From: a virus
Taxonomy: Duplodnaviria > Heunggongvirae > Uroviricota > Caudoviricetes
Virus record (IMG/VR): IMGVR_UViG_2703718869_000013
Location: 1-64,000 of that record
Reading direction: 5' to 3' (one strand)
Length of the DNA: 64,000 bases
How positions within the stretch are numbered: the stretch's first letter is position 1; each line of letters opens with the position of its first letter. The position numbers and the translations under genes were made by a program. Below are positions 516-9,514 of the stretch, piece by piece. The notes beneath the pieces were generated by a model. That model worked only from the letters and a program-made list of their open reading frames with translations, made no database searches and was not told the origin of the DNA.

Positions 516-926
516 TTACTCACCTCCTTTGATGCGAATGCCTGCGGCGCGGATTGCATCGATGACTTCAGAAACTTTGTATGCCATTACCGTTTGGTAA
601 TCATCGTGAAAATCTGTTCGATGAAGCATGCTGCTACGTTCCGGGAGCAGTATTTCCCGCGCTTCCAGTTCTGCAATGCGCTTTTTTGCTGCTTCCAGTT
701 CATCCAGTAATTCCAGCACGGTAGCCGGATTAGCCTTGGCAACAAAATCCCGGACTGGCTTACAATCAATCTCCGCAATGGGTTGATACGATGTGTAGCC
801 ATGCTGTCTTGTATAACTACCGTGACGAATAACGAAAAAATCACCATTTATTTTTTTAGCCTGCCACTTATCTTCACCGGCTTTCTCTGCCGCCTCGCGC
901 AGTGCCTGATAGTCAATCTTGCTCAC
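516..926 (-). CDS. Ead/Ea22-like phage protein
   Basis: N-terminus MSKIDYQALREAAEKA typical of the Ead/Ea22-like family; paralogous to next gene. Confidence 0.55.
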   Translation of the reverse strand: MSKIDYQALREAAEKAGEDKWQAKKINGDFFVIRHGSYTRQHGYTSYQPIAEIDCKPVRDFVAKANPATVLELLDELEAAKKRIAELEAREILLPERSSMLHRTDFHDDYQTVMAYKVSEVIDAIRAAGIRIKGGE

Positions 927-1699
927 TGGTTGCCTCCTTTGCGAAGCTGGGAAGCAAAGTCAACTAACCACTCTGTCATTTCAACCTTCCCTACCAGGTC
1001 TGAACCAGGGTGCATACAGCAATCACTCTGCGCCGCTTTGAAATCCTTATACTCATATTCTTGGGCCACCAGATTTTTTGCAGTTTCTATAGCAGCATCC
1101 ACCCCCTGCGCCCGCACTTCAGCCAGGCATTTGCGAAACTCGGAAACGTACTGTTCGACGCTCATTCCCCAGCTAAGTGGACATTCATTGAATGTTTCGC
1201 CTTCGTGCTCTTCATCAGGTAGCTCTTTGGTAAAGAACTCACGCTCAATGGCGTGGAGTGTGTCAGCAAAACGACGTAAGTTACTCAAACCTACCGTAAT
1301 GGAGAATTCAGGAGCATCACATCCGACGCCCATCTGCTGATAAACGGCGGTTTTGAAGGTCTTAAGCCCCGCATTCTCCGCCGCCAGCGCCGCGAGATTA
1401 GTCTCAAGCTCTGCAATTCGACACATAGCATCAATATTTGTGTCCTCCAGGCACTTAATTTCACCAAGCAGCTCCAGTGCAACCTTTGGGTTGAACGCGG
1501 CAACATGACGAGCGTTGTTCTCTGCATTTTTCTGTCCATCAAAGCCGGTCCATTTGATAACGTCTTCACATCGTTCATCACCGGGCGTGTGCACCGCATA
1601 AGTACCAGTATCCGTCGAAATAAATGCGACCCATTCGTCTGGTGTTGCCTTTTCTGCCGCCTCACGCAGTACCTGATAGTCAATTGTCATTCTCGCCAT
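923..1699 (-). CDS. Ead/Ea22-like phage protein (longer paralog)
   Basis: N-terminus MARMTIDYQVLREAAEKA shared with 516..926; 4-nt overlap coupling. Confidence 0.55.
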   Translation of the reverse strand: MARMTIDYQVLREAAEKATPDEWVAFISTDTGTYAVHTPGDERCEDVIKWTGFDGQKNAENNARHVAAFNPKVALELLGEIKCLEDTNIDAMCRIAELETNLAALAAENAGLKTFKTAVYQQMGVGCDAPEFSITVGLSNLRRFADTLHAIEREFFTKELPDEEHEGETFNECPLSWGMSVEQYVSEFRKCLAEVRAQGVDAAIETAKNLVAQEYEYKDFKAAQSDCCMHPGSDLVGKVEMTEWLVDFASQLRKGGNQ

Positions 1700-2331
1700 C
1701 CTTCACAGTTGTAATCACTACAGCCTTCAAAATCATATGGGCTGTACTGCCAGGTTATTTTTCCGCAATGCGGACAATTCCAACGCACCTTCCCGCTTCG
1801 CGACTTCTTTCTTCTGTTCTGCTCTTTCAACCAGTCAGGCATGACCAAACCTGCGCCCTGAACCATTGTTCTGCGGTTAAAGTTATTGATATTGAACGTC
1901 CGGCGCTTTGCTGCATCAGCAATGGAAAATGGCAACCAAACTATTCCTGGTTCGTTTTTGTTGGCGACGCTAAAGATGGTCGCTTTACTGAAGTCATCTG
2001 TTGGCAATCCACCGTGTTGAAGCCAGTAAACATCGTTGCCGTTCCAGCTACCTTTTTTGTAGGCCACATACTCAGTGCAATCTGACTCAATCAGGCTTTC
2101 TGTAGGGATGTACTGGCAATCAACGTGCCACACAGCCATTGCATCCACACTATCGGCACAAACAGGCTGATCGATATCTCGCCCACAATTCCAGGCTTTT
2201 TGGGCTTCTTCCAGCGTGTAAACATGAGCGCGATCGATATCAGAACTGTAACCATTGCCGTTATGGCAATGGAATGAGGCGTTATTACCCACAGTTTCAC
2301 GCAAGCACATCATGTAAAAACGGTTACTCAC
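1687..2331 (-). CDS. hypothetical phage protein, Cys-rich C-terminus
   Basis: 214-aa ORF in operon context; CPHCG and CxxC motifs suggest a zinc ribbon. Confidence 0.45.
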   Translation of the reverse strand: MSNRFYMMCLRETVGNNASFHCHNGNGYSSDIDRAHVYTLEEAQKAWNCGRDIDQPVCADSVDAMAVWHVDCQYIPTESLIESDCTEYVAYKKGSWNGNDVYWLQHGGLPTDDFSKATIFSVANKNEPGIVWLPFSIADAAKRRTFNINNFNRRTMVQGAGLVMPDWLKEQNRRKKSRSGKVRWNCPHCGKITWQYSPYDFEGCSDYNCEGWRE

Positions 2332-2539
2332 TGGATGCCTCCCAGCAAATTTGTCTTATATAAGAACTGTTAACGCGCTTTACTTTCCCGTCGAACTCCA
2401 GTTTCTTTAGACGACGCAAAACGTATGCCGTTTTGAGTGTGCGATATTTATCCCTAAGCCAGTTGGTCACGACGTAAGTCATACAGCGCCCGTGTTCTTC
2501 CAACACCCGAACTATTTCTTCGTCGGTTGGCTTGCTCAT
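2324..2539 (-). CDS. hypothetical protein (71 aa)
   Basis: ORF track; overlapping start/stop with neighbours. Confidence 0.4.
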   Translation of the reverse strand: MSKPTDEEIVRVLEEHGRCMTYVVTNWLRDKYRTLKTAYVLRRLKKLEFDGKVKRVNSSYIRQICWEASSE

Positions 2540-2757
2540 TTTGTCGCTCCTTCAGCTTTCTCTACTTTCGCTGCCATGATTTCCAGCTTTTGTGCTGCCG
2601 ATGCCGCTAACCTGTGAAATTCTTCATCTGTTTCAACTGGAATTGGTACAAACCTGACACCAATTTGAGCAAGGCTATGCGCCATTTCGAGACTTGTTCT
2701 TAACTCTGCTGGGGATGCTTTATTCAGGCCGACTTCCTCACAAATAACTGATTGCAT
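2536..2757 (-). CDS. hypothetical protein (73 aa)
   Basis: ORF track; translational coupling. Confidence 0.4.
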   Translation of the reverse strand: MQSVICEEVGLNKASPAELRTSLEMAHSLAQIGVRFVPIPVETDEEFHRLAASAAQKLEIMAAKVEKAEGATK

Positions 2758-2766
2758 ACGCTCGCC

Positions 2767-3482
2767 CTACTGAATACGCTCAAACTCGATTACCCAAACC
2801 CAGGGATTAGCACTCCAGCTTTCTTCGCCGTAGATGGATTCCCACAGGCGCTGGAACGCAACCTTGGCCATTGCGAAATCCCCCTTGGGAGTAAGGAATG
2901 TTCCCGGGTGATCAGGAAGCAAACTTCCAGCAGGCGGAACGCCCTCATCCCTTGCATCGCATTCGCTGATATCGTTCAACCGCTCAACGCGCACGTTGGT
3001 AATTTCCAACAGGATGCGCGCGGCATGTGAATTGATGGACGCCACCCACCATCAAACTTTTCATTCACAGTGTGAGGTTTCCAGTCGGCATCATCGGGTA
3101 TCGACCATAAGCCGTAATCACCAGGTTTTTGCTCGCAACTGGCCCGATAAATCCTTGCTGCGTTCTTCTCATCGCCACGACAAAGGTTGTCGTTCCAGTC
3201 CACACTGCAACCATCCTCATTGCCTAATATCGCCCATGTTTCACGAACCCAAATTCGATCGCCGACGATACCAAAGGGGCAATTGAAAACACTGCTTACA
3301 CCATCAGCCCCGTACCACTGAAAACCTGCACCAATTTTTCTAACCATCACTGGTGCTTCTGGACCAACTTCCGCAGGCTGATTTTTCATTATCCGCCGCG
3401 TCTGCGTTTTCCTTCCTTCGAGGATGGCCCGGACCATCTCATCGTTGAAAATCATGCCGCGCTCTTTCACTTCGCCTTTCAT
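2767..3482 (-). pseudogene. ASCH-domain protein gene interrupted by a frameshift (two ORFs, 2976..3482 and 2767..3045)
   Basis: N-terminal ILEGRKTQTRR and GDRIWVRETW in one frame; C-terminal ASCH-like end (WESIYGEESW...WVWVIEFERI) in the other; total length not a multiple of 3. Confidence 0.45.
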
Positions 3483-3491
3483 GCATCCCCC

Positions 3492-3578
3492 TTACCCATG
3501 TGCGACGATGCCGCCAAAAGTGATAGAGAACAGCCAGAAATAGATCGCGGCCATAATGATTTTGAATGCCGTGTTCAT
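3492..3578 (-). CDS. small hydrophobic peptide (28 aa, MNTAFKIIMAAIYFWLFSITFGGIVAHG)
   Basis: ATG with AGGAG 8 nt upstream; single predicted TM helix; absent from ORF track because under 60 aa. Confidence 0.35.
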   Translation of the reverse strand: MNTAFKIIMAAIYFWLFSITFGGIVAHG

Positions 3579-3607
3579 ATTTTCAGCTCCTGTGATTGAT
3601 TGGATAC

Positions 3608-3638
3608 ATGCCGCGTCTTGCGGCATGTTTTTATTTTC
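3608..3638 (+). terminator. GC-rich hairpin followed by T-run (plus-strand orientation)
   Basis: catgccgc-gtctt-gcggcatg then tttttatttt. Confidence 0.35.
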
Positions 3639-3660
3639 ACTTTCTCTGTTTTAAAAATCA

Positions 3661-3677
3661 AGATTTATTAGAGCAAT
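3661..3677 (-). promoter_or_regulatory. C1-type operator, 16/17 match to ATTGCTCTAATAAATTT
   Basis: agatttattagagcaat is the reverse complement of attgctctaataaatct. Confidence 0.55.
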
Positions 3678-4183
3678 TATTGCTGATGGAGAAGCGCATT
3701 TTCATACTCCCTGACCATTAACGTAAGTACGCCGTGTCTCCTGAAAACACGCGCCACTTCAATCTTATCTTCCAGCGCGAACGCAATTTTACTTAGACCA
3801 ATTTTCTTAAGGAGATCAATCTTTGCTGGGCCGTCATTTCTGTCATCGGTGGCAGGACGCATAGATAGCAAAGGCTCAGCCCCGTTTGTTACGTGCTTAC
3901 GCAACCAGGCTCGTGTTTTATCCCTTGCGATCTCACAGCGCCCGGTTACAAACCAGACCGTGTAAACGTTAAATAACTGGCGCACCATATCAATAACTGG
4001 AGTGATGGGAGTATCGGTGTCACAGGCGAGATTAAACTCGTTCCAGTCCTTTGTTAATGCACCTTTACCTGGTGGTGGAAGCAAATGCAGCCTGTCTTCC
4101 GTTGCCTCTGATATCGTCCCATCAATATCTACTATGACGATGTACGGACGTTCCTGGCGTGCGTGTTTATTGAAAATACTCAA
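3677..4183 (-). CDS. HAD-superfamily hydrolase-like protein (putative phosphatase/nucleotidase)
   Basis: motif I VIVDIDGTI (DxDGT) near N-terminus. Confidence 0.45.
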   Translation of the reverse strand: MSIFNKHARQERPYIVIVDIDGTISEATEDRLHLLPPPGKGALTKDWNEFNLACDTDTPITPVIDMVRQLFNVYTVWFVTGRCEIARDKTRAWLRKHVTNGAEPLLSMRPATDDRNDGPAKIDLLKKIGLSKIAFALEDKIEVARVFRRHGVLTLMVREYENALLHQQ

Positions 4184-4255
4184 ATGCCCTCCTCATTGGA
4201 CGAAAAAAATGCTGGTGGGCGCACTCCACCAGCATTAAAAGTGACACTGTAACTA

Positions 4256-5518
4256 TCAGCGAACGTAAATAGTGCCGCCGTTCTCTTTTTCCCATGCATC
4301 GCTACGTGCATAGCAAACATCAAGAAGTCTTCTTGCCGCTGTTTTCTCTAAACCCAATTCGACAACCAACTGCTCATGACGGCGGGTAACCACATCAAAC
4401 AGGGTATGCAACCCTTTAGTTGCCAGATCATCAATGAATTCCGGTTCGAACGGCAGCTCTGCATCTGCCAACATAACCTCTTGCGCCCACTCAACTCGAC
4501 GGACCAATTCCGGGCGGCGGCTTTCCATTTCTTTACAGATCAATTCATGGAAGAACTCTACCCAACCTTCCGGCTGGAACTCGCGGAAAATTGCCAACGG
4601 CTGGAAGTTTGGCATCAACCATTCGTTGATTCGGATATCAATGGCATAGCCCATGTCGCAGCAGAACTGATAAGCAAAGTCCAGCTTAGAAACGATATAA
4701 GGACGCTCGTTATTGAACTCTTTAGGCGATGAGATCCCATAAGCCAGGAGGCGCGGGAAGAAGGAGATTTGCCCTAACGTCGGATGAAGTTTGCTTGCAG
4801 GGAAACGGCGCTCAGTAATGCCATACATTTCCTTCTTGAGCGTCGCAAATTTGGCATTCTCATTAACCAGCGCGGTAACCTCTGCTTTTTTATTAGCAAA
4901 TGCCACGCGCGCCTCGCTTGCATCTTTAATAGTTTTTTTGAGCTGTTGGTTAAGGTCGGCGACCTGCTTACGCAGTTCCTGTCGCTCGCTTTTAGCTTTG
5001 TTATAGCGTTTCTCAAGGTTAAAAGGATCAAGTTTCATGATCTCTTTATATTGAGATTTTAGCGTTGAAATCTGTGAGTTCCGCAGTTCAACCATCGCGG
5101 TCATTTCATTGAGTTTTGTTTCCAGCTCAATGCTTATACGTTCGGCATTATCAGCACGCTGGTTGGCGTCATGCGTCGCATCGTCGATCGCGTCCTGTTG
5201 CTGGCGTTTCAAATGTTCAATTTGCAGCTGAAGCTCTTCAATTTCTTTACCCTTCAGACCGAGATCCAACTGCATATTTTCAGCTGCATCTACCAGGGAG
5301 TTATGGCTATCAGCTTCTGCGTTATAAACATCAATAAGCTGTGCGTGAAGCATCTCCGCTGACTGAACCGCATTATCAAAAAAACGTGCTGTGAGGTCAT
5401 CACAACTAACGCGGCGTTGCGCGGCCCGGATGTTCTGGATAATGGCCGGAATACCGGCATTCAGGACATCAGGAATAGATACATTTTCGATTGATTGGTT
5501 TTGTGCTGAAGTGCTCAT
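4256..5518 (-). CDS. hypothetical protein with long central coiled coil (420 aa)
   Basis: heptad-rich Q/E/K/L segment between residues ~90 and 230; good coding length. Confidence 0.45.
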   Translation of the reverse strand: MSTSAQNQSIENVSIPDVLNAGIPAIIQNIRAAQRRVSCDDLTARFFDNAVQSAEMLHAQLIDVYNAEADSHNSLVDAAENMQLDLGLKGKEIEELQLQIEHLKRQQQDAIDDATHDANQRADNAERISIELETKLNEMTAMVELRNSQISTLKSQYKEIMKLDPFNLEKRYNKAKSERQELRKQVADLNQQLKKTIKDASEARVAFANKKAEVTALVNENAKFATLKKEMYGITERRFPASKLHPTLGQISFFPRLLAYGISSPKEFNNERPYIVSKLDFAYQFCCDMGYAIDIRINEWLMPNFQPLAIFREFQPEGWVEFFHELICKEMESRRPELVRRVEWAQEVMLADAELPFEPEFIDDLATKGLHTLFDVVTRRHEQLVVELGLEKTAARRLLDVCYARSDAWEKENGGTIYVR

Positions 5519-5519
5519 T

Positions 5520-5738
5520 TCAAAGTTCCGTATTAGCTTGTGCTTCGGTCATTTTTCCTAAGTATGAAGGAGGAAGGACTACGCAATTTGTATCCAGTCC
5601 CTCACCTATGGCAGCCTGTAAAATTCTGGCTAAGGTGAGTCTCTTGTTGCGATACCTGGTGATGACATGCCTGATACCGCCGGTCGGCGTAACAAAGGCG
5701 ATCAGCCAGTAGTGATATTTCCGTCGGAATGGCCACAT
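5520..5738 (-). CDS. hypothetical protein (72 aa)
   Basis: first ORF downstream of operator pair; coupled to 4256..5518. Confidence 0.3.
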   Translation of the reverse strand: MWPFRRKYHYWLIAFVTPTGGIRHVITRYRNKRLTLARILQAAIGEGLDTNCVVLPPSYLGKMTEAQANTEL

Positions 5739-5752
5739 AGTGCACCTTATAG

Positions 5753-5769
5753 ATTGCTCTAATAAAAAA
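5753..5769 (+). promoter_or_regulatory. C1-type operator (14/17)
   Basis: attgctctaataaaaaa. Confidence 0.4.
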
Positions 5770-5790
5770 CGTGATGAGTGTACATCACGT
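5759..5790 (-). terminator. intrinsic terminator for the gene ending at 5820
   Basis: acgtgatg-agtgta-catcacgt stem-loop followed on the minus strand by a U-run. Confidence 0.45.
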
Positions 5791-5801
5791 TTTAAAAATA
5801 T

Positions 5802-5818
5802 GGAATTATTAGAGCAAT
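5802..5818 (-). promoter_or_regulatory. C1-type operator (14/17), inverted partner of 5753..5769
   Basis: ggaattattagagcaat. Confidence 0.4.
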
Positions 5819-5819
5819 A

Positions 5820-6521
5820 TTATTCTGATTCTCGCTCAAAAAACGAGCTAATGAGGGGAAGCCAATCCTCTGACACTTCGCGAGGCCGCGGTTTGCCGTG
5901 GAAAAAGATTATTCGGCAGTCCTTTGGTAATGTCCCATTCCCCCTGGAGTAACGCGCGCTCGCATATTTTGAACCAGGTTCCACAACATCGGCCTTGTAA
6001 CTTACAAACCATCCTGGATACAGATCCTGAAATGCTGGTGTATCATCGCCCATAACCTTCCGTAAGAACCCCTGATCACCCCAGCACTCAGTAGTGACAC
6101 AACGAGAAATCCAACCTTCCGGATCTTGCCAGAATGAACTCCAGATATGTGCTTTTACACTATTTGGTATCCACAGGGCACCGCTACCACGATATTGTGG
6201 ATGGTAAAAATCCCTAAGCATGGTGAAGCTGGTTGGTGGATTCTCAAGGATTGGGCGTATATCACCGGCAATAACTGTGTCCAAATCCAGATAGAACAGA
6301 TCATCGGTTATATCCGGTCGGAACAACTCGATTTTCGCCCACCAGCCACGGCACTTTTGCCACTGGTTGATCAATGGGACAACTTTGACGCCAGGTACAT
6401 GTAAACGCTTCAGGTCTGTCAGGCAAATAATTTCATAGCCTTTTGGCAGTTGATTAACCAGCCACTGCACATCGGAAGCGTTATAGTCACCACCAGAGCG
6501 AAAAACTAAAGCAATCTTCAT
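5820..6521 (-). CDS. putative glycosyltransferase (GT-A-like, DxD motif)
   Basis: YLDLDTVI DxD-type motif; 233 aa. Confidence 0.4.
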
Positions 6522-7210
6522 GCTGCACCATCACCTTTCACTTTCATCAATGTCAGGTTTCCGCAAAATACGGCACCAGTGTCGATATACTGCTGATTCC
6601 AGAATGTCTTCGGGCTTTTCACCGGAGTGTGACCAAAGATAAAACGATCTGCGCCCGAAATTTCGCCACCAATATCATCCATCGAATCACTGATACGCTC
6701 GCGCGCCCAGACAACGTTGAAAAGCGGCACCTCCTTACCGAATTGGTATTCATTATCCGGATAGTCGGCATGGGCTATAACGATAGTTTCTTGCCCGGTG
6801 TTCAACTCAATGATATAGGGCAGACGCTTTACCAGCTCCACCAGCGCCCAGGCTAATATTTCCTGATCAGTGTCCAGCATGAAGAACCATTGTCCGCCAT
6901 TCATTAGCCAGTTATTCACGTTGCCATCTGGACTTAACGCATCAATCATCAGCCGCTCATGGTTCCCCATCACTGCCCTGAACCAGGGCATCTGCAATAG
7001 TTCCAGACATTCGACATTTTCAGTACCGCGATCGATAAGGTCGCCGACCGATATCAGTAAATCCTGCGCCTGGTCAAAATCCACACGATGGAGTTCGGAC
7101 ATCAGTCTGGTGTAGCAACCATGCAGATCACCAACAACCCAGACATTCCTGTATTTGGTACCGTCGATACGGTGATAAATTGTTGGTGCCATCATGTATT
7201 CTTCAGCCAT
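6518..7210 (-). CDS. ppp: serine/threonine protein phosphatase (calcineurin-like metallophosphoesterase)
   Basis: GDLHGC, GDLIDRG and GNHE motifs. Confidence 0.8.
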
Positions 7211-7818
7211 TCTTTAAGAGTCATCTGCGGAATACTTCCCATTTTCCCGCATGAAACAACGTCAATCTGTTCACGCGCAGACTGGAATAACAAAGGTAGG
7301 TGACTTAGATTTTTTGGCGTGCCGCCGGAGTGAACTCGTGGTTCTTGCGTAGCGTCAACGCCCACCAGGGCTACATGTTTGAATCCGATATGGAAAGCCA
7401 GGTTCAGAGCACCATATGCACTATTGCCGCTGGCAATTTCATTCTCATCTTCGCAAAGGCCGAAATGTCCGGACCAGCGCCACGCCCACCACTCGGGAGA
7501 ATTCGTATTTTTTGGCTCCATGCCACGTTCAGCCACACGACGGAAGCACAGAACGCCGTCTCTGACTTCACGTTCTTTAACATCGGGTAGTGCCATGCAA
7601 TAACAAACCCCACGGCGACGGCGGCCACGACCAACGCGCCGCATATTGTCTGGGGATGGATCAAGGGTGAAAAAATAAGAAGCGCGGTTAAGCCAGTCGA
7701 TGGCCCCATTGACCGCTATAATCGGCACTCCGCGCGGCGCAACAAAGTTTGCGGCGCTTGGGCCACTGCCGACGATAATAACGCGATCACTGCCTCTAAA
7801 TTTATTCTTGGGAAACAT
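7192..7818 (-). CDS. GT42/MptE-like (DUF115-like) Rossmann protein, paralog B
   Basis: IIVGSGPS...IIAVNGA motifs resembling the sialyltransferase CstII / Maf N-terminus. Confidence 0.4.
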
Positions 7819-8378
7819 TGAATTGCACTGCTCCTACTTGCATTCAAAATATGTAAATCTGCGTGTTTTTTGCGGGTATCCAGGAACTGCTGTTGCCATT
7901 TTGAAATAGACACCTGCGTTGGATTCCGTAGTGCTTGAGGGTGCGCGCCATGCCAATGAAGGCCGTTTTGCAGAGAACAGTCATAGCCGACTAATACCAC
8001 TACTTCAGCCCCTGATTCAGCAGCCAGACTGATAGCCTGCGCGCCGCTATTTACCCCTTCCGCCGGTCCACAATATCGCCTGTACTCCAACGAAAATGAT
8101 TTCGCCGCCGCCAGGTTGGCTGTCACTTTGCGGAATCTCCCTCCCGGTATGGTGGATCCGTATTGCTTCCACCATGACAAATCACCGGCGTATAAGGCAT
8201 AAATGTCATCGAACATCTGCCAGGAATTGTTAACCGCGATGATTGAACAGCCAGTTTTTTCTATAGCAGCACAGTCCTCACGAGTGAGTGACGGACCGCT
8301 ACCGACACAAAAAACAGTCCTAGTCGCCCTGGGTGGTATGTTCATTCTCAGCTGCAAATTCAGCCTCCAGGCGAGCAT
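7716..8378 (-). CDS. GT42/MptE-like (DUF115-like) Rossmann protein, paralog A
   Basis: VFCVGSGPSL...IIAVNNS motifs; paralog of 7192..7818, 103-nt overlap. Confidence 0.4.
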   Translation of the reverse strand: MLAWRLNLQLRMNIPPRATRTVFCVGSGPSLTREDCAAIEKTGCSIIAVNNSWQMFDDIYALYAGDLSWWKQYGSTIPGGRFRKVTANLAAAKSFSLEYRRYCGPAEGVNSGAQAISLAAESGAEVVVLVGYDCSLQNGLHWHGAHPQALRNPTQVSISKWQQQFLDTRKKHADLHILNASRSSAIQCFPRINLEAVIALLSSAVAQAPQTLLRRAECRL

Positions 8379-8541
8379 TCATTTCAGCGATTACAGGGTC
8401 CACTACAGCATCTGTTTCCTGTTCATTACGCGGCATGACCGATGCCAGCGACTCATAATTAACCTTGGATGACACGATTATTCTCCCGATGTTAAAGTGC
8501 ACTACCACAAAGAGTGTAAATGCACTAATTAATTTATTATT

Positions 8542-9120
8542 TTAAGCAGCATGCAACCACTTATCGCCGTTCAATACATGCTCAATAGCCTCACCCTTTT
8601 TAAGACTTATGTATTCCAGGATGGCGGTAATCGCTTGTTCTGCACCATACGCAAGAACAACGTAGTAGCCTTCCTCTCTAAGCCTGCGCATCCAGGCGAT
8701 CTGCTCTTTCGTCGGGGCTTTACCATTTGGTTCTTTAAGCTCAATTCGCATGCCGTGATAAATACCGCATGCTTTATCGAGACTCATGTCCGGATAACCT
8801 TTTTTCTGCCCTTCAGCCTTCATTTTCCCGGCGGTTGCTTTTGAACGCTTCCCTCCGTTAGGCGTTGCATGCAACAGCTCATAGATGTCAGGGTGCTTGC
8901 GTTCGAAGTAATCAAAAATGAAAACCTGCTCGAAGTGCTCGCAATTTCCGTCGCGCAGGCCTGGGTTCTTTGCCAGTGCTGCAAGTGCCTTCGCATGTGG
9001 AGAAACTTCTTTTACCGGCGCAAGCGATAAGAATGGATCCTTTTTGGTTTTTGGCCTGGACCGCCCCTTATTTCGACGCTCACTAAAAGCCTGAAACTCT
9101 TCCTCAGTAAAGCGCAACAT
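8542..9120 (-). CDS. VRR-NUC domain nuclease-like protein
   Basis: C-terminal region with ATPNGG...AGKMKAEGQKKGYPDM pattern typical of VRR-NUC. Confidence 0.6.
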   Translation of the reverse strand: MLRFTEEEFQAFSERRNKGRSRPKTKKDPFLSLAPVKEVSPHAKALAALAKNPGLRDGNCEHFEQVFIFDYFERKHPDIYELLHATPNGGKRSKATAGKMKAEGQKKGYPDMSLDKACGIYHGMRIELKEPNGKAPTKEQIAWMRRLREEGYYVVLAYGAEQAITAILEYISLKKGEAIEHVLNGDKWLHAA

Positions 9121-9122
9121 AA

Positions 9123-9368
9123 TCAGTCAAATCCTGCCGGTCGCATGCCATATTTACGCTGTTTTGCGGCCTGCTCTTCCCTGTGCCATTGCGCACATTC
9201 AGCGTCACAATAAATGCCTGATTCAATCGATTCATTGCAGTAACGACACTTCCCTGTAAATACCTGGCTCACGACCTGTGCCTGCTTTCTGATGTTATCG
9301 ATGGCCATGTCTTTGAGAGCTTCTAACTGATTCATGCTCAGCTCTGCATCATCAACACGTTCTGCCAA
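9123..9368 (-). CDS. TraR/DksA-family C4 zinc-finger protein
   Basis: CRYC...(10 aa)...CDAEC zinc ribbon in an 81-aa protein. Confidence 0.55.
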   Translation of the reverse strand: MAERVDDAELSMNQLEALKDMAIDNIRKQAQVVSQVFTGKCRYCNESIESGIYCDAECAQWHREEQAAKQRKYGMRPAGFD

Positions 9369-9424
9369 TTTTGTTTTCTCGTGAAGAACCTACTTAAGGG
9401 CAGAATGATACATTTCACAATCAA

Positions 9425-9441
9425 AATTGCACTAATAATTT
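9425..9441 (+). promoter_or_regulatory. C1-type operator (15/17) in divergent intergenic region
   Basis: attgcactaataatttt. Confidence 0.45.
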
Positions 9442-9514
9442 TCTTTTATTGAGTTAAATATTCAACAAATGACTAGCGGTAGAATCACCATCATCTATTT
9501 CTGGCAGGCTGACT

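Follow-up and report, generated by a model that had tools for sequence, protein, structure and literature searches.

The stretch of phage DNA analyzed here (positions 1 to 64,000 of the IMG/VR record IMGVR_UViG_2703718869_000013; hereafter the window, 64,000 nucleotides) belongs to a P1-like phage, and three of its genes, pmgO, pmgP, and pmgQ, are members of what is very probably a glycosyltransferase cassette. PmgP and PmgQ, usually accompanied by PmgO, appear to form a mobile glycan-building unit, newly recognized here, which unrelated phages of gammaproteobacteria carry within operons of late or structural genes. As the best overall explanation, to which we assign a probability of roughly 0.4, the cassette would build a short glycan of Kdo (3-deoxy-D-manno-oct-2-ulosonic acid) and hexose, preferably on the inner core of lipopolysaccharide (LPS).

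Over positions 5500-8600 the window is 98.8% identical to phage P1 (NC_005856), it is collinear with P1 across 2797-14256, and 19 of the 21 phage records matching it are P1 or P7 relatives. A preliminary description made from the sequence alone had pointed to four consecutive minus-strand genes, all of which are present as open reading frames (ORFs) and which are named in the NC_005856 record, from low to high coordinate, pmgQ, ppp, pmgP, and pmgO. Together with a more distant fifth gene they are:

pmgQ, 5820..6521, minus strand: 233 amino acids (aa); GT8-like retaining GT-A glycosyltransferase, putative uridine diphosphate (UDP)-hexose transferase
ppp, 6518..7210, minus strand: 230 aa; lambda-type Ser/Thr (PPP-family) metallophosphatase, a passenger at the pmgP/pmgQ junction
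pmgP, 7192..7818, minus strand: 208 aa; remote PmgO paralog, putative cytidine monophosphate (CMP)-ulosonic acid (Kdo) transferase, most conserved member of the cassette
pmgO, 7716..8378, minus strand: 220 aa; sialyltransferase-like (GT42 / Maf / MptE fold), putative CMP-ulosonic acid transferase
dbn, 15969..16967, minus strand: GT4-like (GT-B) putative glycosyltransferase, recurrent accessory of the cassette; probable true start Met9 at 16943

A cassette shared by unrelated phages

An earlier scan of contigs had returned only P1-like loci at 98-100% identity, and 22 diverse viral loci were found with a divergent first sequence. Hidden Markov models (HMMs) were built for the PmgO, PmgP, and PmgQ families and every fetched locus was scanned with them. 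All three proteins are encoded together in 19 of the 22 viral loci; two others hold PmgP and PmgQ only, and the last one is cut off just upstream of PmgP. In six divergent phages, identity to the P1 proteins amounts to 33-62% for PmgP, 27-41% for PmgO, and 31-43% for PmgQ. The PmgP of P1 is 56-62% identical to those of Pseudomonas, Citrobacter, and Alcanivorax-type prophages and 46% identical to that of EP_H11, and the virion genes in the loci of these homologs are of quite different types.

The cassette occurs in P1-like phage-plasmids, in lambdoid prophages (Citrobacter phiNP, an Alloalcanivorax prophage, and one in which the Q antiterminator and holin genes flank it), in HK97-like prophages, where it follows the major capsid gene (L008/L100) or the capsid and connector genes (L112), in the Escherichia coli phages EP_H11 and IME392, in jumbo phages of Xanthomonas (XacN1) and Stenotrophomonas, and in a contig of at least 247 kb. 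Elsewhere it belongs to late operons, in which it follows lysis genes, precedes terminase, or separates the Q antiterminator gene from that of the holin. All named hosts are gammaproteobacteria without exception. Behind the cassette of XacN1 (L189, 10960-18567) come three giant ORFs in a row, of about 1,100-1,300 aa and one with a weak PKD-like domain, which could be candidate targets of glycosylation.

Chromosomal loci also carry PmgP and PmgQ pairs or sets of PmgO, PmgP, PmgQ, and Dbn, and no virion genes were seen there. One such pair (L192, 6001-7298) is surrounded by common genes of metabolism and regulation, phage genes being absent within 6 kb, and a lone pmgQ-like gene (L194, 8001-8633) is situated between lpdA and acnB of a Pantoea-like chromosome. 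In two chromosomal islands (L193 of Serratia plymuthica, 1674-13526, and L011), genes for PmgO, PmgP, and PmgQ are interleaved with Big_1 / invasin-like genes; the Serratia island includes Dbn as well and also holds a lipase gene and a holin/lysozyme pair. These islands may represent adhesin glycosylation systems, holin-dependent secretion systems, or prophage remnants.

PmgQ, a predicted GT8-type transferase

The protein that had been described as GT-A-like with a DxD motif is PmgQ, and this assignment was borne out: the motif is present (Y-L-D79-L-D81-T), and profile as well as fold searches identify a GT8-like GT-A protein. When a family profile of 26 homologs is compared with the PDB, Gat1 (6mw5, E = 1.5e-6), GlyE (5gvv, E = 0.0037), and glycogenin (E of about 0.02) are matched, and these protein glycosyltransferases are also among the best structural matches of PmgQ, which is predicted to adopt the Rossmann-like fold of GT-A enzymes. 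Invariant in the 26 homologs are D79-x-D81, G148-D149, H208-G209, P211, and P213, with R212 nearly invariant and Q150 conserved in at least 90%, and the conserved residues line up with the motifs of the GT8 enzymes glycogenin and Gat1. By its sequence, PmgQ seems to possess the DxD motif, the GDQ-type motif, and the C-terminal histidine of GT8 enzymes; presumably D79 and D81 contribute the metal- and nucleotide-binding DxD, G148-D149 and Q150 the GDQ motif, and H208 the histidine ligand. GT8 enzymes use UDP-hexose donors and retain the anomeric configuration, and PmgQ is predicted to be a retaining transferase of this type that adds an α-linked hexose from a UDP-sugar. It differs from the known GT8 enzymes LgtC, WaaJ/WaaI, glycogenin, GlyE, and Gat1 in being much shorter (233 aa), in sharing only 13-16% identity with them, and in lacking a match to Pfam Glyco_transf_8.

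PmgO and PmgP, sialyltransferase-like proteins

The motifs of the GSGPS...IAVN type that had been noted in PmgP and PmgO are indeed present, as IIVGSGPS...IIAVNG and FCVGSGPS...IIAVNN, respectively. The two proteins had been called tandem paralogs, and profile-profile comparison supports their homology (hhalign probability 97.5%, E = 4.8e-12 over 162 columns, leaving out the fusion protein P0051 that dominated the PmgO alignment), but the relationship is a remote one, BLASTP aligning just the N-terminal motif (E = 0.004). The suspected resemblance to GT42 or MptE-like (DUF115) proteins holds, as profile and fold searches place both in the GT42 / Maf / MptE-like superfamily, of which both have the characteristic fold. 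The predicted model of PmgO matches the fold of Maf, the sialyltransferase CstI, and MptE, with Maf as top match, and the PmgO profile matches CstII at the sequence level on the G-x-G-P-S...N and SG...G-x-D motifs. Many PmgO and PmgP homologs carry precomputed PF01973 matches. In the family alignments, the G-x-D motif is followed by invariant histidines (H141, H143, and H146 in PmgO; H173 in PmgP), candidates for a counterpart of the catalytic base His188 of CstII.

Both proteins are basic (pI 9.3 for PmgO and 9.5 for PmgP). Their identity to CstI/CstII (GT42) and to Maf (DUF115 / PF01973) is 16%, and they lack extra acceptor-binding domains, whereas such domains flank the catalytic part of Maf. 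PmgO and PmgP are predicted to be minimal catalytic domains of about 190 aa belonging to the sialyltransferase-like superfamily (GT42/CstII, Maf, WaaZ) and transferring a CMP-activated ulosonic acid. A natural single-ORF fusion of PmgO and PmgP (protein P0051; L003, 7962-9131, on a 62-kb podovirus-like contig) suggests that the two proteins work as a complex.

For PmgP, which has 326 homologs, a profile search of the PDB gave nothing useful. In a targeted comparison, however, its HMM matched 11 of 11 WaaZ proteins along two collinear stretches (14.5-17.1 bits, P = 1.5e-7 to 9e-7), while the score against the NCBIfam equivalog TIGR04437 for WaaZ is 11.8 bits (E = 0.11) with a cutoff of 200. Judged from these scores, PmgP is a remote relative of WaaZ and not a member of that family. 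A faint precomputed match to PF27901 (WaaZ_KDO_III) falls on the natural PmgO-PmgP fusion protein. WaaZ shares with PmgP the SGPS/T loop, the IAVNG motif, a helix of small residues followed by G-x-D, and a soluble or peripheral nature; it comprises 283 aa and is encoded chromosomally in the waa cluster, whereas PmgP has about 200 aa, is phage-borne, and is always paired with a GT8-like gene. In E. coli K-12, WaaZ is the Kdo transferase that adds a third Kdo to the inner core (PMC8151780).

The MptE-like fold is common to pyrophosphokinases as well, and therefore a glycosyltransferase activity of PmgO and PmgP is deduced from gene context. If they were MptE- or thiamine-pyrophosphokinase-like instead, they would pyrophosphorylate a small molecule, and PmgQ would act on the product or independently. 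This seems improbable to us, as the top fold match is the glycosyltransferase Maf, the only matches at the sequence level are CstII and WaaZ, and the tight and repeated linkage to one to three genes of glycosyltransferase fold, to sugar methyltransferases, and to kdsB would be left unexplained.

Accessory genes and the probable sugar donor

The junction between pmgP and pmgQ is a hot spot for insertions, and the inserted genes vary from phage to phage. They encode a further GT-A protein of small size, whose precomputed PF03407 match is weak, an S-adenosylmethionine-dependent methyltransferase, a Dbn homolog in EP_H11, and Ppp in P1. The PmgQ-like domain of XacN1 forms part of a fusion protein with a sugar O-methyltransferase of the TylF type.

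Genes for CMP-Kdo synthesis are found close by in P1 relatives. In L113, a kdsB gene is present 2-3 kb downstream of the cassette (179.9 bits for the TIGR00466 equivalog, cutoff 155.2), and the same place is occupied by a cytidylyltransferase gene in L093 (CTP_transf_3, E = 2.7e-50) and by a fragmented cytidylyltransferase homolog in L104. In L113 and L093 these kdsB-type genes are about as far downstream as pap is in P1, and the kdsB of L113 has a pmgS-like gene before it, mirroring the order of pmgS and pap in P1. A cyanophage study also describes phage-borne kdsA and kdsB, the role of which was unknown (PMC12801897).

Gene identities and folds, the paralogy of PmgO and PmgP, the conservation of the cassette, and its linkage to kdsB, methyltransferase genes, and dbn are direct observations. 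Two sialyltransferase-like enzymes combined with a GT8 enzyme, optional transferases and methyltransferases, and CMP-Kdo synthesis are the signature of an assembly line for a short glycan. CMP-activated ulosonic acids are the donors of the sialyltransferase-like superfamily, and CMP-Kdo, which is also the donor of WaaZ, is the only one that E. coli K-12 as the host and P1 are known to offer; to our knowledge, E. coli K-12 makes no CMP-sialic, CMP-pseudaminic, or CMP-legionaminic acid. Because CMP-Kdo is the sole such donor there, because kdsB is linked to the cassette, and because the hosts are exclusively Gram-negative, CMP-Kdo is the most likely donor of PmgO and PmgP, with slightly better than even odds.

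The acceptor

No membrane-spanning segment is evident in PmgO, PmgP, PmgQ, Ppp, or Dbn, their maximal hydropathy over 19 residues being at most 1.55, and therefore all of them are expected to be active in the cytoplasm or on the membrane's inner face. Once the operon is derepressed, CMP-Kdo and UDP-hexose of the host would be used to form a short Kdo/hexose glycan on an acceptor that is conserved from host to host, with the GT4-like Dbn as an optional fourth transferase. Tentatively, we take this acceptor to be the LPS inner core, which is slightly favored over a virion protein. Nascent Kdo/heptose inner core would receive a WaaZ-like extra Kdo branch and a hexose, and the surface serving P1 and other phages as receptor would be remodeled in this way. 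The LPS core is what P1 adsorbs to, and the outer core is truncated when WaaZ is overexpressed; receptors on newly made LPS might conceivably be masked by a Kdo branch that the phage adds. The slight preference for a host-side acceptor is based on the relationship of PmgP to WaaZ, the detection of WaaJ with PmgQ, the minimal enzymes, the high conservation of PmgP across phages that differ in the type of their virion genes, and the intact chromosomal sets near which no virion genes were seen.

With the same enzymes and donors, the cassette might instead attach O-linked glycans to proteins of the capsid, tail, or decoration while these are still in the cytoplasm, before assembly or in the course of it, a possibility that we consider slightly less probable. 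It would resemble flagellin glycosylation by Maf and the reported glycosylation of mycobacteriophage virions, changing the surface and leaving plaques unaffected. The mycobacteriophage cassettes are likewise sets of phage-encoded glycosyltransferases dispensable for plaque formation; according to what Freeman et al. reportedly found in 2023, they serve phages of actinobacterial hosts, include methyltransferases, employ other transferase families and sugars, and have established target proteins. A virion acceptor is consistent with the location of the cassette inside head-gene modules of several independent HK97-like prophages (L008/L100, L112) and in late operons of other phages, with the best fold matches being protein glycosyltransferases, with the giant ORFs that follow the cassette in XacN1, and with its occurrence in probably virulent phages (the podovirus-like contig and jumbo phages), for which lysogenic conversion is irrelevant. 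In P1, moreover, the neighboring gene is pmgR, the deletion of which leaves heads and tails unjoined. However, PmgP is highly conserved among phages with different types of virion genes, the enzymes lack an acceptor-binding domain of the Maf type, PmgP and PmgQ pairs and sets including PmgO and Dbn persist in chromosomal loci without visible virion genes, and we know of no protein-linked Kdo. The searched text of the P1 virion proteome paper, in which glycosylation was not sought, does not mention it (PMC9024508).

The two chromosomal islands raise the question of whether surface proteins of the host or of the island, for example adhesins of the Big_1 / invasin type, are the acceptors, the phage copies being a mobile version of a bacterial adhesin-glycosylation set. 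The two loci are independent, and in both, Big_1 / invasin-like genes alternate with those of the cassette proteins PmgO, PmgP, and PmgQ, to which Serratia adds Dbn; autotransporter heptosyltransferases, which glycosylate adhesins with an LPS precursor sugar, provide a precedent. Most cassettes, however, reside in phages without Big_1 genes, no Big_1 homolog was found in the P1-like window or in any phage locus examined, and both islands carry holin and lysozyme genes and may be prophage remnants. Big_1 proteins were rejected as acceptors common to all cassettes, and an adhesin acceptor in general is considered unlikely.

The preliminary description had suggested DNA, virion proteins, or host envelope components as substrates, and DNA is the least likely of the three. 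The only points in favor of glycosylation of phage DNA for anti-restriction, as in the T-even phages, are that DNA glucosylation has a general precedent among phages and that there are several transferases. Against it, PmgO and PmgQ do not have the folds of DNA glucosyltransferases from phages, restriction enzymes routinely cut P1 DNA, which has methylation as its only modification, and no gene for the synthesis of a hypermodified base was seen among the accessories in the cassette loci. A hydroxymethyl-pyrimidine gene was not linked to the cassette in the loci examined, the window as a whole not having been scanned for a hydroxymethylase. Knockouts leave antirestriction unchanged (PMC9024508), and we regard this explanation as highly improbable.

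Phage modules that alter LPS are well known from the seroconverting gtrABC and oac systems, which change the LPS that the phage itself recognizes. The Gtr proteins of these systems are integral to the membrane and modify the O-antigen in the periplasm; they are expressed in the lysogen and encoded near the attachment site. In contrast, the five P1 proteins have no membrane-spanning segments and include no combination of an integral-membrane flippase with transferases as in gtrABC, and the cassette is located in late or C1-repressed operons.

Several points weigh against a Kdo/hexose glycan on the LPS inner core. LPS-converting phage genes are usually expressed in the lysogen and located near the attachment site, unlike this cassette. 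The features that speak for a virion-related role rather than for LPS count here too, i.e., that the cassette adjoins capsid and connector genes in several HK97-like prophages and lies in late operons elsewhere, and that the structures best matched by PmgO (Maf) and by PmgQ (Gat1, GlyE, and glycogenin) are those of protein glycosyltransferases, and so does the position of the genes beside Big_1 adhesin-like genes in two islands. At the level of the enzymes, PmgQ has no Pfam or NCBIfam match at E <= 1 and GT8 is reached only by the family profile, PmgO and PmgP miss the gathering score of PF01973 (MptE-like) with 23.4 and 20.9 bits compared with 34.6, and hhalign against the WaaZ family reaches just 23-29% probability. 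The kdsB linkage was seen in only three P1-related lineages. Finally, plaquing is not impaired by single knockouts or by CRISPR interference (CRISPRi) when pmgO, pmgP, ppp, pmgQ, or dbn is the target (PMC10695390, PMC9024508).

Ppp, Dbn, and Pap

Ppp had been recognized as a lambda-type Ser/Thr phosphatase, and it matches lambda phosphatase (1G5B) with E = 8e-95 over residues 11-229, i.e., full length. It scores 59.1 bits with Pfam Metallophos (cutoff 21.5) and has the motifs GDLHG, GDLIDRG, and GNHE of the PPP family. Its gene is present in only five of the 22 viral loci, all of them P1-like (L106-L110), and the phosphatase model did not find it in any of the non-P1 loci scanned, including EP_H11, phiNP, and XacN1. 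It is also missing from five other large contigs of 73-102 kb (L093, L096, L099, L104, L113) that are P1-like in size and, where inspected, in their neighbors. Because only these P1-like loci have ppp and the five other large contigs are without it, Ppp is regarded as a passenger. The idea of the phosphatase as a partner in the cassette was thus not upheld, Ppp being outside the conserved module; it is an orthologue of lambda phosphatase that landed at the insertion-prone junction of pmgP and pmgQ and takes no part in the proposed mechanism.

The fifth gene, at 15969-16967, corresponds to P1 dbn, and its product, which had been described as GT-B-like, can be called GT4-like on weak evidence. 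With 23.8 bits, Dbn stays below the gathering score of Pfam Glycos_transf_1 (26.4), a domain matched at E <= 1e-3 by only four of 36 Dbn homologs, and a search of the PDB with the single sequence gave nothing useful. Its profile matches the putative glycosyltransferase 8xsg (E = 0.0078), and the EX7E motif in the C-terminal Rossmann domain, in which E248 and E256 are invariant in the 36 homologs, aligns with the motif of 8xsg. A representative protein library contains 256 relatives. The annotated start of dbn seems to be too far upstream (16943-16967), since most homologs align from residue 9 (Met9). Dbn is encoded near the cassette in three independent settings, 7.6 kb away in P1, between PmgP and PmgQ in EP_H11, and at about 3 kb in the Serratia plymuthica island, and its position inside the cassette of EP_H11 and its co-localization in Serratia support the earlier proposal that it belongs with the other transferases. 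On the whole, profile and fold searches agree with the families that had been guessed (GT8-like, GT42/Maf/MptE-like, GT4-like, lambda phosphatase). A PADLOC scan of all five proteins found nothing relevant.

P1 Pap (3677-4183, minus strand), annotated as a putative acid phosphatase, is of the HAD type with a DIDGT motif, the PNKP phosphatase domain being its best Pfam match (E = 3e-12). A role of Pap as a PAP2-type lipid phosphatase fitting an envelope theme was therefore rejected.

Operon structure and control

The genes pmgO, pmgP, ppp, and pmgQ are the distal genes of the C1-operator-controlled pmgN operon. They overlap by 103 nucleotides (pmgO/pmgP), 19 nucleotides (pmgP/ppp), and 4 nucleotides (ppp/pmgQ), and since they overlap or abut they look like one transcription unit. 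Further features of the operon are:

C1 operator-like site (P1 Oppp, formerly Op83), 8519..8535, plus strand: upstream of the operon; three mismatches to the C1 consensus
pmgN, 8320..8475, minus strand: a small ORF with which the operon begins; 51 aa, GTG start at 8475; P1 annotation by collinearity
hairpin followed by a U-run, likely intrinsic terminator, 5765..5793, minus strand: directly after the pmgQ stop codon

A consensus scan found 12 C1-operator-like sites in the window, with 0.38 expected by chance, and in the P1 record Oppp is a monovalent C1-controlled operator. The GTG start of pmgN is preceded by the ribosome-binding sequence GGGAG, and family searches gave no match for its product. 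The hairpin after pmgQ (-13.4 kcal/mol, z = -5.0 versus shuffled sequences, UUUUUU after the stem) likely closes the operon as an intrinsic terminator. A pattern scan for promoters and terminators returned sites at no more than chance frequency, and this hairpin was missing from its list. The pmgR promoter region has two C1 operator-like sites (5753-5769 and 5802-5818) with the terminator-like hairpin between them, so that termination of the operon and repressor control of the next one are combined in a single short spacer (5753-5818).

The genes had been assigned to an early region. The C1-operator-like site at 8519-8535 agrees with this, but the P1 record places a late promoter upstream of pmgL-pmgM, and elsewhere the cassette is found in late or structural operons; late read-through from the pmgL promoter into the operon is possible. 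CRISPRi of pmgN lowers plating to 1.4e-2, and the gene was scored as essential, yet its knockout is non-essential and the downstream genes are dispensable (PMC10695390). Adjoining the cassette on the other side, pmgR is essential, and heads and tails remain unjoined upon its deletion (PMC9024508).

The start of pmgO seems to be annotated too far upstream. Residues 1-16 are not conserved, have a predicted local distance difference test (pLDDT) score below 50, and overlap pmgN (8320-8378), and they are probably not part of the real protein. In the 103-nucleotide overlap, pmgP is in the -1 frame relative to pmgO, and long overlaps of the two genes (about 90-100 nucleotides) recur in P1 and in unrelated loci, e.g., L092 and L094. 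A frameshifted PmgO-PmgP fusion by way of this overlap was considered and rejected, as the shift removes either the conserved C-terminal helix of PmgO or the N-terminal GSGPS strand of PmgP.

Two parts of the window differ from P1. Positions 1-2796 are not collinear, other ORFs, among them one for an Ead/Ea22-like protein (923-1699, minus strand), replacing the pmgT/pmgU/pmgV region, and at the position of the 309-aa pmgT of P1 only a 168-aa ORF is left (2976-3482). Between gene 5 and dbn there is an insert of about 1.7 kb (14257-15975) with an ORF for 344 aa (14337-15371, minus strand) containing a KilAC/ANT domain of phage antirepressors (E = 7e-32), and two C1-operator-like sites at 15890-15922 lie within this region.

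Biological significance

The enzyme classes are already annotated, RefSeq labeling pmgQ as glycosyltransferase, pmgO as alpha-2,3-sialyltransferase, and dbn as possible glycosyltransferase, with PHROGs doing likewise. Literature searches, including searches for phage-encoded WaaZ, Kdo transferases, and DUF115/MptE-like proteins, did not return a functional study of pmgO, pmgP, or pmgQ. What is new is the conserved and mobile PmgP-PmgQ(-PmgO) cassette, its variable glycan-tailoring accessories, and Kdo as its probable donor. A more speculative extension, which we hold to be rather doubtful, is that a mobile cassette of two to four enzymes, distributed among temperate, probably virulent, and jumbo phages of gammaproteobacteria, directs host CMP-Kdo to a novel target, giving either the first protein-linked Kdo glycosylation, on a virion, or a lytic-phase rewriting of the LPS inner core that would serve exclusion, prevent readsorption, or assist lysis, some P1 relatives bringing their own kdsB.

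P1 is among the phages most used in genetics, and this operon has remained without an assigned function since the genome annotation of 2004. If three of its putative morphogenetic genes are the P1 copy of a widespread glycan-building cassette, the hypothesis can be tested in E. coli K-12. Whether the outcome is LPS or virion, it would reveal a new use of host nucleotide sugars by phages of Gram-negative bacteria; a modification of LPS would bear on receptor masking and on the design of phage-therapy cocktails, and a modification of the virion would bear on the immunogenicity and stability of phages.

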